Positions 2,905 through 27,964 of a stretch of 64,000 nucleotides of DNA are shown in pieces. This DNA comes from Anolis carolinensis. Its lineage: Eukaryota. Below the pieces are notes generated by a model. The model saw nothing but the letters and a program-made list of their open reading frames with translations, searched no databases and was not told the origin of the DNA. Both the position numbers and the translations under genes were made by a program. The DNA lies in the NCBI RefSeq assembly GCF_035594765.1, contig NC_085842.1:49948782-50012781 (forward strand). The letters run 5' to 3'. Each line of letters opens with the position of its first letter. The first letter of the stretch is position 1.

Positions 2905-3450
2905 AAGTACAGTACATAAGATTAGGCCTGATCAGCGCAGAACATAAGGAGACTATAGCTTCCCTCAACTTGGAAACTATGCTTCTATTAATGAAGATCA
3001 AAATATCATTTGCCTTCCAACCCCCGAAATAAAGAGACAACACAAGTAACTTGGGTTAAAATAAGGGCAACTTTATTGTTACCTACTTAACTTTGGCAAA
3101 CTAAGTATCCCCAATCTGGTGTTGAATCTGATAGAGAAAAACCAATCTAAGGTAGCGTCCTTATCCGGTCTACCCTAGAGCTGAAAAGTGTGAAAAAACC
3201 TGGTTCTCGGTTAACCTTCACCCGAGCAACCTTTAAGGGGAATGTGTCCGAGAAGCCTCCCTCAAAGTAATTGAGGCCAAATTCCCGACCTTCCCAGGGC
3301 CTTGAATTTCCCCTCACCTGTTTAAAGATGTAATAACAGGTGAGTGTTTTTTCTTATATCCGTCCCCCCAAAGGGCTGGTGCCCTAGGTGTACCCTAAAT
3401 CCAAAATTCCCCACTCCATTTTCCGCTACTACTTGGGGGCAGAAATCTAT

Positions 3451-4053
3451 CTAGTCCCCAACCCCTGCCAAATTCTCCAACACCTCTCTAATTCCTACCT
3501 GTAAGTTGAAAAGGAATTGAAAGTTGCCCTCCACCCATAGATGAATGCCATCTGATCGGTAAAAGTGCAGCTTATCGTGAGTGATGGCCTCATGCAAAAT
3601 TGCAGACCCTCCGCCGCGGGTCAGAGTGGAACGAATTGCTCTGTTCACGCTTTTCCGCACTCTCTCAAGTTTCCGCACATCTCCCTCTCCTGGCCAATTG
3701 AGACGTGGGATTATTGCTGACCAAATAATGTGGGTATGGGGCCAAGCGTCCCCTATCCACTTAAAATCCTCACGAGCCTGAAAAAACAAGGCCCAACCCT
3801 GGAGCAGGCCTAGGTCATTCCCACCAAGGTGAATGACCAAAACATCGGGAGGTAACCGATTTGGCACTCCCGGGGCCAAATAATAAGGGAATTAAAACAT
3901 CCCACCGCAAGCCTCTTCTACCCCTCTATTCGATCGTGGCGGTGGAGGCGAGGCCCAGGTGCTGACCATAGGCAGTATGGAGTCCCTGACGTTCCGCCCA
4001 GTGGACATAGCTGTGGCCGCAGATCAGGACCCTCAGTCTATGTGCCAGCAAAA
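3451..4053 (-). pseudogene. SGNH/GDSL hydrolase (esterase) ORF of the Ngaro element
   Basis: Block I VLICGHSYVHWA (~4030-3995), block III VIHLGGNDL, block V DGIHL; one in-frame TAG (3926-3928) and a 1-nt frameshift near 3880; no ATG of its own. Confidence 0.85.
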
Positions 4054-4163
4054 CTGCAATAGGGAAAAAACAACATGTGAACTACCATGCAGAGGAACCG
4101 GTGTACCCCTTGTACGCACAGCAGCTTCCCCCTCCTGTGGACTAAATTTACTACAAAGTATTA

Positions 4164-5048
4164 CTACACTGAGGAGGAGCAAACATACCCTTTGTACGCA
4201 CTAGAGCTCCACCTCCCCAACCATTTAATTCTTTCCACCTCGTACCCCAGTTGGGCTGCCGTGGACGCGGCCCCGATGTGAAAGGAATGAGTCCCATACT
4301 TCAGATGACCCAAGCCCAAAACTTTGAGTGCCTTGGAAGTAATTGACCAAAATTTATATTTCGTCAACGGGGAGCCATCCCTATGGCAAAAAAGGAACCC
4401 GGGGGCTGAGCCCCTGACTGCTAACAAAGATGACACAGCCTCAACCGGGCAAAGATCTTTATTGCTGCAATTAGCCAATTTAATGAGCGCTCCCCTTTGA
4501 TCTGTTTTAGACAACCTGATCCTGAATTCTACATTCCCCGTGGTCAGTGCCACATCGGAAAACAGGAGCGCTCACTGCGTGGCGTCGGTTTTGGACATGG
4601 CTACCAACACACTTACCCGGAGCGCCCTGAAGAATACTACTAAGGCCACTGCATGGAAGAAAACCTGCTCGTAAAGGGAATTACAAATTTTTGGCCAGAT
4701 TTGTTTCAATCCCTTTAAAATGGCCGGTGTCATGGGTTCCCTGCCATCGCGGGGTTGTTCCCATTCCCTTGACTATCCTGCCATTACCTTGTGCAGGTGA
4801 AAGTCATTAGCTACATCATTAAAACCTTGAGCTTTGAGCCAATATGATAATATAACCAATTTAGACCTAATGGAATGTAGAGCAAGTCCCCTTCTCCTGC
4901 AATAGACACAATATTGTGCTATATGCTCGTAAGGTACTGGGAAATTGTGAGACAAATTATAGCATTGCCTGAATTGGTTAAAGTCTTTGACCGCTCTGAG
5001 GTAACTGTTCCTGGAGCTGGGTGCTAGTGCCATGGCCATTCCCTTCAC
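4164..5048 (-). pseudogene. Ngaro tyrosine recombinase
   Basis: SAM-like N-terminus (ALAPSSRNSYLRAV), FFRALRVS, RLSKTDQ, LCPV, THSFHIGAASTAA...GRWSSSAYKGY; the catalytic HxxR Arg appears as His. Confidence 0.9.
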
Positions 5049-5055
5049 TAACGCC

Positions 5056-7400
5056 TCATTCCAACCAGCCAGAGATGGTCTGGCATAGGTGCAGTGGGTC
5101 TAGCTGCCTGAAGCGCTCCATCTGCATACGAGACAGAGCGTCAACAACGGAATTATCTATCCCCACGACATGAAAAGCCCAAAATAGAATGTTGTGTGTC
5201 AGGCAGTGGAGTGTAAAATGGCTCAAAGCATCCATTACCCTAGGTGATTTGGATATCAATGTATTAATGACCTGAACTGTAGCCATGTTGTCACACCAAA
5301 AGTGCATCATCGCGTTAGCAAAACTTTTAACCCATATGGTCATGGCTACTAAGATAGGGAAAAATTCCAGGAAGGTCAAGTCCGACGTGATGCGTTCCAC
5401 GTGTCATTGCTGCAGCCAAACCTCCGCACACCAATGGCCTTGGAAAATCACACTGAATCCCAGTGACCCTGCTGCATCCGAGGCAACTTGGAGGGCATCA
5501 CCCAGCACCAGGTTGTGTCTCCAAAAGGATACGCCGTTAAACCTGGACAAAAATTGGAGCCAGACCTCCAGGTCCGCCTTGATAGCGCATGTGACTCTAA
5601 TATGGTGGTGAGGTAGTGGTATGCCTGCTATTGCATTGTTATAACCTTCTTAGAAAGGCCCGCCCAGGTGCAACCAATTTACATGCGAAATTCAAGTGAC
5701 CGATAAGCTCCTGAAATTCACGTAGGGTGGCTTTCTTATGTGTAATAAATTGCTGAACTCTAAATGTCAAATCTGCTACTTTCTTGATGGGCAGCCTGGA
5801 ATATTGTGACACCTCAGGGCAGCGGGAGCACTGGGAATCAGACACGAAGGCCAATAAACAATCTAATATCTTTATTAAGGAAATAAAGGAGACAACTAAA
5901 AATAAGCAGAGTATTTAGTCCAGCAGTAGACCTTTCAGGAAGGGTCAAATATAGTCCAGTAATATGAAAGTAGATGTCCAGTATTAGAGTTCAAAGTTTT
6001 AAATCCAATAACCCAAACACACTCAAATCTTTAGGCTGTTTGAGTGGGGATTAAGGCAGGAGCTGTCGAGTTCCAGGGCTCGAATCCGAGGCTAGGATGC
6101 AAGGCAAGGCAAAGTTAGTCGTGGTAAAGCTGAATCACTGTCCAGGCTTGGCAGGGAGACGAAGACGCAACGCCGGTCTACTCTAGAGTAGCGCGCTGCA
6201 GAACTAGTGTCGATGTGAAATCCTCAACTGACACGTTGAACACCACAAAATCTATTTGGTGCCCAGAACTTTTATGGGACTTTGCTCTCCTCCTCAGCCA
6301 GGTGTCTGAGCTCTTTCCCAAGGGAAAATGACCAAAGTCAACAACTTTGCCAGATGCAGTCCTCCCTGAAAACTCTCAAGGGAATCAGCTTAATTAACGC
6401 TTGCTTTCTCCGCTAAATGAGCTCTTTCTTATGAACTGTGGGCTAGAACTGTCCACAGTGGGCACCTGGAAAGGGATGGAATCAAGTGGAAATGGCAGAA
6501 ACCCCATCTCTTCTTCGGTCTGCTCCGTAATAACGACGGGGTCATGACTCGGGGGTCTCTGAGACACTACAAAAATTGACAAATAGTGTCAATTTTGACA
6601 CCCAAGTATGTCAACTTAGTGATTCAGCCAAAGAAACCTCTAGTTGACGGGTGAGCTGACTGAATGCATTCAGCAAAGAAGCGCATTCTCCGCTACCCTG
6701 CCTTCCAGTGAATAGAACGTCATCCAAATAATGTACCACCCCCACTAAGCCTGATTTCACCTTCAAGGCTCACTCCAGGAACGTACTAAACTTTTCGAAT
6801 GCAATGCATCACACAGAGCAACCCATGGGCTCTGTCCATATAAAAGAGACCATCAAATTGAAAACCCAGTAGTTCAAAATCGAGTGGGTGGACTGGGAGG
6901 AGACAAAATGCTGACTTAATGTCACATTTCACCAACTCTGCCGCGTGCCCTCGACTCCTAATAAGCCTAATAGCCACATTGAAAGATGTATAATGCACTC
7001 TGCATTGGTCATTGGGCATCATTGACTGACCTGTCTTTCAGGTATGACAGGTGATGCATAAGGCAAAACTCACCAGGTGCTTTCTTTGGCACTATTCCCA
7101 ATGGGGAAACCATAAGCCATGTGGAAGGGGGCTCTGGGAATGGGCCAAGAACTCGGCTCTCCCTGACCTCTTTTTCTATTTTTTTGTGCTACAATTGCCT
7201 CCATGCCAATCAGGGACTTTAAATTTGGGGACAATACGTGTGATCTCAGACCAACTGCCGGAATCCAAAAACCAAACTTAAAATCCTTAAACAAGTAGCA
7301 GGCAGCCTCCTTATCGGGGTACCTTTTTAACCATTCGCCTAACTGTGACAATTTAATTAGGCTGGGGACCTTTGGGAACATGGGATGTGGCTGTTCCCTT
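5056..7400 (-). pseudogene. Ngaro reverse transcriptase-RNase H (frameshifted, split by a solo LTR)
   Basis: KCDIKSAFCLLPVHP, VVHYLDD (~6720-6740), LGVKIDT, LIGHLNFACKLVAPGRAFLRRL, SDAAGSLGF, LEFFPI, FWCDNMATV, HVVGIDNSVVDALSR. Confidence 0.9.
5805..6571 (-). mobile_element. Solo LTR (probably Gypsy) inserted in the Ngaro RT
   Basis: TG...CA ends; 5-bp TSD AATAT/AAAAT; removing it restores the RT reading ...IDTICQYSRLP...; shares blocks with the LTR at 42523-43391. Confidence 0.85.
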
Positions 7401-7450
7401 CCTGAAGGGTTGATTGTCCCTTTGGTTGGCCTTGACAAACTTCGCTCTGG

Positions 7451-8769
7451 TCAATTTTTTGCTGAATGGGCCCCGGAACAGATGCTGCAGGCATGGAGGA
7501 TTTGACAACTCCGCTGGGAGCAAGCCCCTTGGGCTGCATACTCCCAGCACATAGATTCTGCTTCTGGGCAAGCTGCTGCGGGGCCACCTGCTGTAAGGGC
7601 AGTGGCCTCTTGGTATTATGTATTATGTGGCCACTGTCCGCCTTCTCCCCCTGAATAGAGTGGGCATGGGTCATCAAGTGAATCCATAATGGCTTGTTAA
7701 CCAGGTCCCATCTACATGATGGGCAACGGGCCACCACGAAACAGAAACACTTGTCGTATTCTAGCCAAGCGTCCCCACCAAACTTGGAGTAAGCCAAGTA
7801 AATGGTGTTCTGATACTGAAACAAAGAATTACCCCAATGAGGGTAAGCATTGGTGATGACTCCCGCATAAATAAGAAAGCAGGCGAGCCAGTTCTCCCAA
7901 TTTTGTTCAACCTTCCTTTTCTTGATTGGTTCCTTATGCTCGTCATTTAATTCATCTTTTTCCTTCTTCTCCAGCTCCCTGAAGAACAAGGAAAAAAAAT
8001 CTATATATTCATTCTTTAAAATTCTTTCAATGGTTTTTGGTGCAAGTTGGGCGCCCAGCACTGTCGCCTCGCTGGATGGGGTTGGTGGCAACGGCCATTT
8101 GACTGTGCCCCAATATTCATTGGCTTAATCAAACAGCGCCTTATCGGCGGCATTGGGACTTGGCAAAACTGTTTGCTGTTTGGCCGTGTTGGCTGCATTA
8201 CCTAGTGAGCCTGTGGTTGTGTGTGCACTTGAGTTGCCTCCCATCTGATGTACCTGACTCAGGTCCCAAGGCCACGAAATAGGCGTGTTCATACCTGCTG
8301 AAGTGGTAGGGCTAGCCCCTGCTTGCCCTTGTGTCGCAGGCAGCTCAGCAACCTGGGAAGCCGGTGTCACTGGTAATGGAGCTTGGCTGGATGGTGCCTG
8401 TTGTGCCCCATCTAGAATCCCCTCAGGTGAGCTTGCAGTCCCACCAAGGTCTCCTGCCACCTGAACAGGCTGGACAGCCATATCCGTAGGCTGTCCACTC
8501 AGAGCAGCATCTACAGCAGAGACACGAGAAAGAATGGCATTGAGAATATCCCTCTTACTTACCTGTGGTGTCGGTTGGGTGCAAACTGTGGGCGCAGCTG
8601 CCCCCAACTGCTTTTCTAATGTGCTGATTTTTGCTAACAGCGCATAGTAATCCTGGATACTGAGACCGTCATCATCCAATGAGGAACTGCTTGGAGGTGG
8701 AGGGCGTTTCACTGTCGTCTTCTTTGCTGGGCCCTTGCCCTTTGGACCACCGACCTTCTTAGGGGTCAT
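7451..8769 (-). pseudogene. Ngaro ORF1/Gag-like protein (frameshifted) with C-terminal CCCH + CCHC zinc fingers
   Basis: ORFs 8125-8796 (ATG at 8769, MTPKK...) and 7357-8091 (W..Y...F motif WLEYDKCF); an alternative frame at 7549-7451 reads CWEYAAQGACSQRSCQILHACSICSGAHSAKN*. Confidence 0.8.
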
Positions 8770-10122
8770 TCTGCAAGAAAAAATGGCATGGCCCAATCAA
8801 TTAGCACCCAGAAGTATCTTGCTTCTGGAGATGACATGGGGCTAAATTGATTGGTAGTCCACACCACAACCGCTGATGGGCTTTGCAAGCCACCCCCCAA
8901 TGAGCCATCCTGCAACTGAATGGCTACCTCGATGGCCGCCCCAGCTTAACTTTGCAGATTGGCTCCCATTCCTAACCCAAAATGGCCACCTCCCATAGAC
9001 AACAACTGCCCTTGAGCACCGCCAAGATGGCCACCATCCAAGCCCATAAAATGGCTGCCATGAGGAAAGCAATAGGGCTGCCGGGCCATTCCCCTCTGTG
9101 GCATTGGGCCATGTGGCTAAGATGGCTGCCTTGCGGGGGAAAAGATGGCTGCCAGCCCCCAACCCTCAGCATAGCCAGAGGCCATGCAGCCAAGATGGCT
9201 GCCCTGGAGAAGACAAGATGGCTGTTGACCCCGTTCCCCACACGTGTAGGCAGGTCATGTGGCCAAGATGGCCACCGCTAAAGGCCAAAGGCCTGTAAAG
9301 CACACCAACTGCCAACAGCCATCCCGCTACCCCCTACAGCCCTCCTCATACATCGTTACAGCATGAAACCACGTCAGGAAGGAAAATGGGGTGAAGCGCC
9401 ACTGATGCTCCACCCCGGCAACGCTCATGCCTGCTGCGGCCTGGGCCGCAATAAAAATCTTGAAATTCGCCGGTGATCTGAGCCCATGGAGCATCCAGGC
9501 GCAAAATAAACGGTGCAGGCCCCAAAGAGGCCGCACCGTGACACCTCCCCACACGACCGGGCTGAGCCCCCAGGCATGGTGGGAATCACCGAGAAGGCCT
9601 CCTCACCCACCTGCCTCCTCCGCTGCTGCGCAGGGCAAGCCCCAAGAAGCAGCAGGGAGGCAGACAGACAACGCCGGCCCAAGTAGGGCCATACCACGAC
9701 ACCACCCTCCCGCGACTGCACTGATGGCCCAGGTAATGCGGGGACGAAAAAAGGAAAACCGCTTGGCCCTCCCACCTCCCCAGCCACCGCCCAGGTAAAG
9801 GCCCCCAAAAGGGGACCAAACTACTTTCTACTGTTCTTGCAATCCCTCTTCTTCCTGCGGCGCTGGGGCTAGCCGTCGCGGGGATCCAAAGGGAGGTGTA
9901 GGCCGTAGCCCAGCCTCCCTACCAGCCCCGGTAACAGACCTTACGATGTCTTCATTCCCTGAAGATCTGAAGAGGAATAAAGGCAAGAGGGCTGGCTTCT
10001 CAACAACTTAGCCATGCCCCCTTGCTCTGGCTCGAACGTGAGCCATAGGTCTCTTGTTCAGGGGAGGAGGCAAATTGCTCTCCTCCCCCAGCTTTGCTGG
10101 GGGAGGAAAGCCCCTTGCCTTC

Positions 10123-25041: not shown

Positions 25042-25183
25042 CCCCCCTGCAGGTGCCACCTTGATGTGGTGGGGGGGCTTAGCTGCTCCAATGATGACTG
25101 AGGGCTGTGCTGCGGCAGGTCCAACCAAGCCAGAGAGGCCTCAGCTGAGGAGCACAACCAAGAGCACCTAACCCATTAGCATT

Positions 25184-27964
25184 ATGGAGAATCAAACCCA
25201 AACGAAGTCTATACTGGCTCGGTCGTCACCCAGGATAAAAAGGACCGCGGTGGATGCTGCTGATTCTGGACATCCATCGACAAGTGGGCTACGGAATCAT
25301 CAAAACCCAAATGAACAGTCACAGAAGCGGCAAAAATATACAATGCCAGAAAACCGCACAATTATGAAATGCTACTACAAATCTGAACCTAAAAGGCGTG
25401 GCTACCAAAAAAGGATGCATCAGCTATGGAAACAAGAGTACCCTGACTCACAGATAACAGAACCCCGACTGGCTGACCAACGAAGATTCATAATCAGAAA
25501 CAAAGTGTTCAGTGAAGTTGAACTCGAAGAAATCCAGAAAATTTGCAAAGTAGATTACCATCAGACCACAGCACAGACAGCAGCAGAGACTCCAGCAACA
25601 CTTGGAATGGTGGAACAGATTGAACCAGAAGAAAGTGTGGCGCTTTTGCAAGAATTTGAGGAACCAGCACTTGAAACATCTGTTGAACCACCAGGAACCT
25701 TGACAGCAAGACAACAAGAGCTCAAGGATAAGATCATGGCTCATGCTGCAGCAAATGCAATAAGAAAGCGGCTCCCAACTCTAAAAACAGTGCCCAAGAG
25801 ACACCTGGCGCCTCTCATGAAAGATGTGAATGCAGTACTCTCCACTGTCCAAATAACATCAATTGAACAAACAAACCAGTATGCCTACAGTGCAGCAGTG
25901 ATAGTAACAGAAGAGCTTGGGCTCCTACAACCAAGGCAGCCCCAAAGAAAATCGACTGGAAAACCAAAGTGGAAGGTCAGGCTAGAGTTGAAAATCAAGA
26001 AACTTAGATCAGATGCAAGTAACCTGAAAAATATGAAAGAGAGGAAACTGAAGAATGACAAAATCAAGCAATACCTGATCCGAAAGTACTGGCTGAACAC
26101 CAGAAAAATTGAAGAAGCTTTGGAAATTGTGAAAGAACAAATTACAGCAACAGCCAGAAAAATTGAAAGGTATGAAGCCAGAATCATCCAGTACAGACAA
26201 AATCAACTGTTTCAATCAGACCAAAGACGGTTCTACCAGAGTCTGAACCAAACAACAGACACAGTAACCATAAAGCCAGAGAAAACTGCAACAACAAAGT
26301 TCTGGAAAGAACTTTGGGAAAATAATAAAAACTACAACAAAAACGCTGGGTGGATAAAGGAGTTTGAAGGAAAATTCTCACAGAACAAAATGGAACTGAT
26401 GGAAATAACAACTGAAATGATCAGCAAACGAGTGCAAAAAGTCAAGAACTGGACATCGCCTGGTAGTGATCAACTTCATGGATTTTGGCTCAAACATCTG
26501 ATTAGTTTACATGGAAAAATGGCCCAACAATTCAATGAGATGCTACAGAAAGGAAGTATCAGTGAATGGCTAACAACTGGAAGAACATACCTGATACAAA
26601 AGGATCCAGCAAAAGGAGCAGCACCAGGAAACTACAGGCCAATAACGTGTCTGCCCACTATGTTTAAACTACTGACTGGCATCATAGCTGACAGAATTCA
26701 AGACTATCTTGAAGAAAAAAACATCTTGCCAGATGAACAGAAAGGCAACAAACGGAAAAGCAGGGGCACAAAAGACCAGTTATTGATTGACAAAATGATT
26801 CTGGAGAACTGTAAGAGCCGAAAAGCTAATCTTCACATGACGTGGATTGACTACAAAAAGGCCTTTGACTCACTCCCACACAGCTGGATCATCAAGTGCC
26901 TGGACGCCATCGGGATTTGTAAAACTGTTGGCACCTTCATTGAAAACATGATGGAGCACTGGAAAACTGAACTGTTTGTTGGAAATGAAAGCTATGGACT
27001 TGTCAACATCAGGAGAGGAATTTTCCAGGGAGATTCATTGTCCCCTCTGCTTTTCATTATCGCCATGATCCCTCTGTCAACAATCTTACAAAAAACAAAT
27101 CTCGGCTATCAAACATCTAAGAATTCTCACAAAATTTCACATTTGATGTACATGGATGACCTGAAGCTGTATGGGAAAACGGAAACTGAAATCCAGTCTC
27201 TGACCAACACTGTCCGAATTTTTAGCACTGATATCAACATGGAGTTTGGTTTGGACAAATGTTCGACAGTGGCATTGAAGAAGGGAAAAATCATTGAAAG
27301 TGAGGGCATAAATATGTCCAATGGCCAAACAATAAAGTGTCACCAGCCAGAGGCCTATAAATATCTGGGCATACTACAGCTGGACAACATCAAGCATGAA
27401 CATGTGAAGACTGTGGTCAGTAAAAAATACACACAAAGGGTCAGAAAAATTCTCAAAAGCAAGCTCAATGGAGGCAACACCATCAAGGCCATAAACACCT
27501 GGGCCATACCTGTCATGAGATATACTGCTGGCATCATAAACTGGACACAGATGGAACTGGACAACTTGGACAGAAAAACAAGAAAACTCATGACCATTCA
27601 TCATTCACTGCACCCTCGCAGTGATGTTGACCGGCTATATCTGCCTAGAAGATCAGGGGGCAGAGGACTCTTACAAGTAAAACAAGCAGTCAAAGAAGAA
27701 GAACATGCCCTGGCAGATTATGTAAAGCAAAGTGAAGAACCTGCTTTGATTGAAGTCAAAAATCAGAAACTCCTCAAAACACAACAGACAAAAAACCAGA
27801 CATCACAGTTGTGGAAAAGAAAAAGGTTTGGATCATTGATGTTGCCATCCCAGGTGACAGTCGCATTGACGAAAAACAACAGGAAAAACTCAGCCGCTAT
27901 CAGGACCTCAAGATTGAACTTCAAAGACTCTGGCAGAAACCAGTGCAGGTGGTCCCGGTGGTGA
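25184..27964 (+). CDS. R4/Dong RT polyprotein, open for ~870 aa, then frameshifted by an internal deletion
   Basis: NYRPITCL, WIDYKKAFDS, GIFQGDSLSPLLF, HLMYMDDLKLY, YKYLG; the frame changes at ~27797. Confidence 0.85.
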   Translation: MENQTQTKSILARSSPRIKRTAVDAADSGHPSTSGLRNHQNPNEQSQKRQKYTMPENRTIMKCYYKSEPKRRGYQKRMHQLWKQEYPDSQITEPRLADQRRFIIRNKVFSEVELEEIQKICKVDYHQTTAQTAAETPATLGMVEQIEPEESVALLQEFEEPALETSVEPPGTLTARQQELKDKIMAHAAANAIRKRLPTLKTVPKRHLAPLMKDVNAVLSTVQITSIEQTNQYAYSAAVIVTEELGLLQPRQPQRKSTGKPKWKVRLELKIKKLRSDASNLKNMKERKLKNDKIKQYLIRKYWLNTRKIEEALEIVKEQITATARKIERYEARIIQYRQNQLFQSDQRRFYQSLNQTTDTVTIKPEKTATTKFWKELWENNKNYNKNAGWIKEFEGKFSQNKMELMEITTEMISKRVQKVKNWTSPGSDQLHGFWLKHLISLHGKMAQQFNEMLQKGSISEWLTTGRTYLIQKDPAKGAAPGNYRPITCLPTMFKLLTGIIADRIQDYLEEKNILPDEQKGNKRKSRGTKDQLLIDKMILENCKSRKANLHMTWIDYKKAFDSLPHSWIIKCLDAIGICKTVGTFIENMMEHWKTELFVGNESYGLVNIRRGIFQGDSLSPLLFIIAMIPLSTILQKTNLGYQTSKNSHKISHLMYMDDLKLYGKTETEIQSLTNTVRIFSTDINMEFGLDKCSTVALKKGKIIESEGINMSNGQTIKCHQPEAYKYLGILQLDNIKHEHVKTVVSKKYTQRVRKILKSKLNGGNTIKAINTWAIPVMRYTAGIINWTQMELDNLDRKTRKLMTIHHSLHPRSDVDRLYLPRRSGGRGLLQVKQAVKEEEHALADYVKQSEEPALIEVKNQKLLKTQQTKNQTSQLWKRKRFGSLMLPSQVTVALTKNNRKNSAAIRTSRLNFKDSGRNQCRWSRW

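Follow-up and report, generated by a model that had tools for sequence, protein, structure and literature searches.

The window, a 64,000-nt stretch of Anolis carolinensis DNA, contains a disabled Ngaro-type retrotransposon with a conserved phase-1 splice donor in its first reading frame (ORF1) and acceptors at the start of its tyrosine recombinase (YR) and SGNH hydrolase (esterase) frames. It is highly probable that relatives of this element splice a shared ORF1 exon (exon 1) onto either frame. We observed the sites, their phase and their conservation and, in one probable RNA run, a join of exon 1 to the esterase frame in one family of relatives (B) and a join of exon 1 to the YR frame in another (C). 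The element fits the known hydrolase-bearing Ngaro group, and the splicing of the ORF1 exon to YR or SGNH is likely the new feature. The initial annotation had proposed a spliced Gag-esterase fusion. The family-B join, the database protein P0019 and the lack of joined genomic DNA support that proposal, which was incomplete: the splice was said to skip the RT/RH and YR frames, and this holds for the exon 1-SGNH join of family B, but in family C the donor also joins the YR frame.

The element is degenerate and occupies 3008..10120 on the minus strand, where all of its features lie; other copies align from 10110-10120 to 3006-3010. Its 5′ end is the start of the A1 repeat, together with a candidate non-coding leader exon (9940..10120; candidate donor AAG/GT at 9940/9939). 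A candidate leader acceptor, made of pyrimidines and CAG, is found at 8771..8790, one base 5′ of the ORF1 ATG. Coding exon 1 (8295..8769) is the ORF1 N-terminus of 158 codons plus 1 nt, and it is followed by the phase-1 donor CAG/GTATGA (8289..8297). The remaining, gag-like part of ORF1 (7457..8294) is disrupted, with a stop at 8127-8125 and the reading frame shifted near 7550. The RT/RNase H frame (5095..7378) was located by tblastn with the intact RT of family B, and RVT_1 was found in that intact frame; in the window it is frameshifted and has an insertion of ~770 bp (about 6576-5807), and the RT protein of the intact family-B copy L105 maps onto it in four pieces (tblastn). A second phase-1 acceptor, TATGCAG (5122..5140, exon from 5121), marks the YR frame start and lies within the end of the RT/RH frame. 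The YR exon (4164..5121) has a frameshift shortly 3′ of this acceptor and two internal stops; the L105 recombinase is 57% identical to window positions 5087-4182. The SGNH acceptor (4054..4081) consists of a branch-like motif, a pyrimidine tract and CAG, with an out-of-frame ATG at 4076-4074. The SGNH exon (3451..4053) has its catalytic Ser codon at 4012-4010; a stop follows at 3928-3926, and the frame shifts near 3880. The B1 3′ repeat (3008..3443, start approximate) closes the element, and its segment 3094-3010 is an 85% match to both B copies of L105.

This copy, a member of family A, is old (~70-80% like other copies) and every frame is broken. The stop in ORF1, the RT frameshifts and insertion, the YR stops, and the esterase stop and frameshift agree with the earlier claim that it is disabled; its product could at most end ~40 residues into the esterase exon. 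A protein search for young relatives, after which 36 genomic stretches were examined, yielded two young families with intact frames, B (L105) and C (L112 and L113). RVT_1 and Phage_integrase were above the Pfam cut-off in L105. Lipase_GDSL_2 was above the cut-off in L105 and just under it in the broken frame of the window. Pfam gave no match for ORF1 of either the window or L105, and none for a methyltransferase domain in the 635-aa RT frame of L105. The form of the window element is A1 - ORFs - B1, with A2-B2 absent; split repeats of the A1 ... B1-A2-B2 type are complete in five relatives (L102, L105, L108, L112, and L113), and the family-A copy L003/L099 has a B and then an A repeat. The window element is a disabled Ngaro-type retrotransposon that fits the hydrolase-bearing group.

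All coordinates of the initial annotation were correct on recheck, including those of the donor, which stands as AG/GTATGA at 8295/8294, 475 nt (158 codons + 1, phase 1) from the ATG at 8769. Its conservation was a check set beforehand. AG/GT is present in 17 of 20 copies, namely 13/15 family-A copies that span the region and 4/5 more distant ones, the fifth having AG/GC; since the copies are related, these and the following conservation counts are not independent events and give no probability. L036, with AG/AT, was scored as a miss in both counts. The donor AG/GT is preserved although the encoded residues vary between copies. AGGTA at the donor ranks third in conservation among the 593 windows of five bases in the opening 640 nt of ORF1 (19 copies), and the two windows above it are both in the KGK motif. 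The two wobble bases of the donor are preserved in 19/19 and 18/19 rows, whereas third positions have an average majority share of 0.63. This column count omitted L036 (interrupted), L045 and L052 (region deleted), and L053 (same place as L043). Families B and C, whose ORF1s are widely divergent, have phase-1 donors at like positions, codon 128 and codon 146, respectively. A donor at 8562 (CAG/GTAAGT) had the top score in ORF1, by a frequency-based measure used for ranking only; it is in phase 0 and not conserved, and was rejected.

The esterase acceptor is a pyrimidine tract and CAG ending at 4054, with the exon from 4053, and its conservation was examined in the 30 family-A loci found with the window's DNA as query. 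YAG is present at the orthologous place in 27/30 loci, with a mean pyrimidine share of 0.83 at -20..-5. In 27/30 loci, 38 nt separate AG from the GHS His codon, and the tract 5′ of AG is 28-31 nt long and varies by single bases. The frame is fixed 3′ of AG and free 5′ of it, which matches the expectation for an intron end. The SGNH frame that begins 2 nt into the exon reads LLAHRLRVLICGHS. The branch-like motif TTCAC pointed out earlier is present in the window copy, but most other copies have GTTAC. In families B and C a pyrimidine tract and AG also precede the esterase frame, and family C has candidate acceptor AGs in phase 1 and phase 2.

The main alternative is that the esterase starts at its own ATG just 3′ of the YR stop, by re-initiation or internal initiation, and that the splice is real but minor or incidental. 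The initial annotation had reported an esterase frame with no ATG. The window copy has no Met between the upstream stop and the catalytic Ser, but many other copies have an ATG: among the 30 family-A loci, 11 have an in-frame ATG in the tract, 11 have one that is out of frame and 8 have none. Each of the 12 young family-B copies has some Met 5′ of Ser within the open frame; it is the tract ATG in 7/12 and a different in-frame Met further upstream in the other 5. For the Xenopus elements, too, four ORFs were annotated, by a finder that accepts only ATG starts (PMC9210276, in its available text). The initial annotation had named an own ATG in intact copies as an observation that would refute its proposal, and this applies in part: an in-frame upstream ATG is common in intact copies, but its frame is not preserved: a one-base change in a T-run switches the frame among family-B copies that are 96-99% alike. 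The young family-C copies (4/4) have no Met before the catalytic Ser. With the exon 1-esterase join of family B also against it, we consider a start at the esterase's own ATG improbable.

The search for joined messages used assembled contigs of four runs for L105 and four for L112; 14 datasets are RNA by an automatic guess, and none is recorded as RNA. The initial annotation had asked for junction reads, and the contigs of run X1 contain the exon 1-SGNH join for sister family B. At L105, the loose end behind 4211 is 16 nt long and identical to the start of the SGNH exon; the loose end before 7667 (12 nt) agrees with the 3′ end of exon 1 apart from one variant. The join is at the predicted position, is reached by contig ends from both sides and appears in one of four runs; its two sides share only AG. 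It was absent among the rows listed for L105 in runs X2, X4 and X7, where the listed contigs cross the donor or the acceptor. At L112, also in run X1, a GT..AG joint connects the predicted donor with a phase-1 acceptor 3315 nt on, at the YR start. In two runs of the same study (X12 and X13) the contigs at L112 stop at the donor, with no joint among the rows listed, and run X8 had no joint. The esterase join was not seen for family C in four runs, in which the listed contigs cross the acceptor region. X1, a run of a single study, is the source of both joins; for the window's own family the evidence is its conserved sites and the database model P0019.

The YR acceptor of family C is in phase 1 at the start of the YR frame, and the same acceptor occurs in the window at 5122/5121. 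Its location in coding sequence makes its conservation alone little proof. A like donor joins this second phase-1 acceptor in family C, and the first exon is therefore shared.

The joins could instead be artefacts, produced by template switching during library preparation or by an internally deleted DNA copy in the animal, with over-predicted gene models. They come from a single run, and a microhomology of 6 nt at the YR join means that a template switch could mimic it. Internally deleted copies also exist in the genome (L008, L016, L021, and L022), but in no case do the deletion ends match the donor-acceptor pair. The two sides of the esterase join have only AG in common, the join lies at the predicted base, and the donor's wobble bases are conserved. 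In exact genomic matches to the end of exon 1, G is the next base in 18/18 (B) and 7/7 (C), and 0/18 and 0/7 lack GT. Joined forms are therefore not found as DNA; two exact patterns, which diverged copies would escape, found no intron-less form in the genome. An artefactual origin of the joins is very improbable. Equally improbable is read-through of the YR stop into a YR-esterase fusion: the family-C esterase frame follows the YR stop with no shift of frame, the sole indel among young copies there is 3 nt and a partial database model (P0017) joins YR to esterase, but in families A and B the two frames are not the same or their offset varies by single bases, and the spacing is different in L119, an older relative of family C.

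Protein databases already contain squamate models of the kind expected from splicing of the shared exon. Anolis carolinensis proteins are 98% identical to the esterase frame of sister family B, and 11 of the 30 proteins that match this frame begin with a basic ORF1-type N-terminus. A second search aligned 7 more such proteins, and the total comes from seven squamate species. P0001 (XP_062833270.1) has 327 aa, that is 128 + 1 + 198, as predicted. P0019 has the join of family A, in agreement with the L008 donor and acceptor sites. Among 15 YR proteins picked from 120 listed, 11 begin with a basic ORF1-type N-terminus. In six esterase/YR pairs the two sequences agree fully over 20-167 residues and diverge from a single point onward, and in LOC128347973 the isoforms X1 and X2 (P0115 and P0020) are a YR/esterase pair from one locus. 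These fusions are automatic models whose RNA support is not visible, and some models join the esterase to other frames (P0017, P0026, and P0029). RefSeq models such as P0001, P0115 and P0020 are exactly the fusions described here; however, they are named as "uncharacterized" or "xerD homolog" host genes and not as retrotransposon splice products.

The basic N-terminus that had been claimed is present, with helices in prediction: exon 1 encodes 8 K/R and no D/E in its first 25 aa, followed by a low-complexity linker, and two helices are predicted from the model of the sister-family fusion P0001. In that model (mean pLDDT 78) the basic start is unstructured, residues 35-65 and 72-87 are predicted as helices, the linker has low confidence and the SGNH domain is confident. 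The modelled SGNH domain matches SGNH structures, 141 of them with E ≤ 0.001. In an alignment of 39 SGNH sequences, N207 and D208 are invariant, and S145, G175, D295 and H298 occur in at least 90%. By its catalytic blocks and predicted fold, the C-terminal domain of the fusion is an SGNH hydrolase. Among solved structures, the ZfL2-1 ORF1p esterase (4C1B, E 2e-8) is closest to it in sequence.

ZfL2-1 ORF1p combines a basic motif and a dimeric coiled coil with an esterase that is active and binds lipids (PMC3905857, available text). It resembles the Ngaro fusion in its basic N-terminal peptide, helical segment, poorly conserved linker and SGNH esterase; it is one continuous LINE ORF, and its antiparallel coiled-coil dimer has been demonstrated, whereas the Ngaro fusion would be assembled by splicing in a YR element, with the esterase in a separate 3′ exon, and has two shorter helices in the predicted structure. 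The Ngaro esterase is not a member of the ZfL2-1 class, as it is not the continuous first ORF of a non-LTR element. The initial annotation had suggested convergence on the design of LINE ORF1p with an esterase. This applies to assembly by splicing only, because the esterase domains themselves are homologous (E 2e-8) and not convergent.

Hydrolase-bearing Ngaro retrotransposons of the order DIRS are described in Xenopus as DIRS-53_XT and DIRS-54_XT (PMC9210276 and its preprint, available text). As in the window element, they have a gag-like ORF, RT/RH, YR and an SGNH ORF, and they share the split direct repeats A1 ... B1-A2-B2 with the window element's intact relatives. The available text gives four overlapping ORFs and a hydrolase without proven function, and neither "splic" nor "intron" occurs in it (PMC9210276). 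The lizard elements differ from this account in that YR and SGNH act as alternative last exons on a shared ORF1 exon. The hydrolase-bearing group also appears in the accessible parts of PMC7192593 and PMC6681497, where the function of the hydrolase is given as unknown. Nothing on Ngaro splicing was found in the accessible parts of these two papers or of PMC3783388, PMC8547959, PMC9004415 and PMC9341512. More widely, the literature searched gave no account of splicing of Ngaro ORFs. Goodwin and Poulter, in 2004, are said to have mentioned introns in some members.

For retroviral env and spumavirus pol, splicing removes the middle of the genomic RNA and so gives access to a downstream frame, and the Ngaro splice would do likewise. 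In the Ngaro elements, however, the donor is 128-158 codons into ORF1, so that the products have an entire protein module in common, and the frames reached encode a recombinase and a cytoplasmic-type esterase instead of an envelope.

From these sites and joins we infer three messages, a leader, their proteins and a role for the shared N-terminus as a tag. One promoter and one transcript would give three kinds of message. Unspliced RNA would encode Gag and RT and serve as template, and one donor with two acceptors would give the exon 1-YR and exon 1-SGNH messages. Each protein would start with the same basic peptide and two helices, a module that may serve in RNA binding, nuclear pore passage or self-association and could bring the recombinase and the esterase to the Gag particle. 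By analogy with what has been proposed for ZfL2-1 ORF1p, the esterase might act on lipids or membranes. A broader reading, toward which we are nearly evenly divided and lean slightly to doubt, is that animal Ngaro elements use retrovirus-like alternative splicing with the ORF1 exon as a common assembly tag on Gag, recombinase and esterase, that the spliced esterase is the equivalent of LINE ORF1p and ties the particle to membranes, and that annotated YRs lack their true N-terminus.

If relatives splice exon 1 to YR and SGNH, this likely explains how both downstream genes are produced. A shared spliced exon would address the expression of overlapping downstream ORFs in the order DIRS and the role of the Ngaro hydrolase. 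It would give defined full-length proteins, an esterase fusion of ~330-400 aa and a recombinase fusion of ~450-530 aa, and would correct the N-terminus of the recombinase. It would also connect two retrotransposon classes that are unrelated by a protein design common to both, and many lizard gene models now labelled "uncharacterized" would be transposon isoforms.

A short non-coding leader exon probably precedes exon 1. The leader intron was not seen in the RNA-type contigs of the L105 and L112 runs, where the listed pieces cross its acceptor. The N-terminus of the model P0033 maps to the 5′ end of the element, with 21/22 residues on L085, a weak match whose last residues differ. YAG is present at the leader acceptor in 19 of 23 loci, two of which are one place, and the four misses have no ATG region or are mis-anchored. 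The leader donor column has GT in 9 of the 10 aligned family-A 5′ ends.

The same genome carries two young families of the element, one represented by L105 and the other by L112 and L113, alongside the old family to which the window copy belongs. The copies of both young families have intact frames and repeats that are 99-100% identical, and most of each family is covered by contigs from probable RNA runs, sets whose RNA status is a guess. In most copies of the window family (judged on L089-L098 and L003), the element takes the form that runs from repeat A1 to repeat B1 and lacks A2-B2.

At the extreme 5' end of the Ngaro element (10068-10120), an inverted repeat of 25 bp encloses a loop of 3 nt, and other copies of the element start with a similar hairpin sequence. 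A conserved GT lies near this end (9940/9939), and a conserved acceptor (8772-8771) is found 1 base upstream of the ORF1 ATG; the two probably delimit a leader intron of about 1.2 kb. Within this probable intron, a 45-nt unit occurs four times at a spacing of 71-73 nt (8976-9297). The units are rich in the motif AAGATGGC, which resembles a YY1 site, and similar repeats were found in other copies of the element.

Upstream of the acceptor of the SGNH exon, the window copy has a tandem duplication of the end of the tyrosine recombinase (YR) gene (~4218-4090). This stretch is also duplicated, apparently separately, in L006, L009, L020, and other copies.

The reverse transcriptase frame of the window copy is interrupted by an insertion of about 770 bp (~6576-5807) that looks like a solo LTR: it begins with TG and ends with CA, its 5-bp flanks nearly match, and it contains an AATAAA. 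A relative with 81% identity is present in L014, and a partial match occurs in the window at 42736-42576. Elsewhere in the window, a 930-aa open frame on the plus strand (25172-27961) has an RVT_1 domain (E 1e-31) and is probably part of a non-LTR element.
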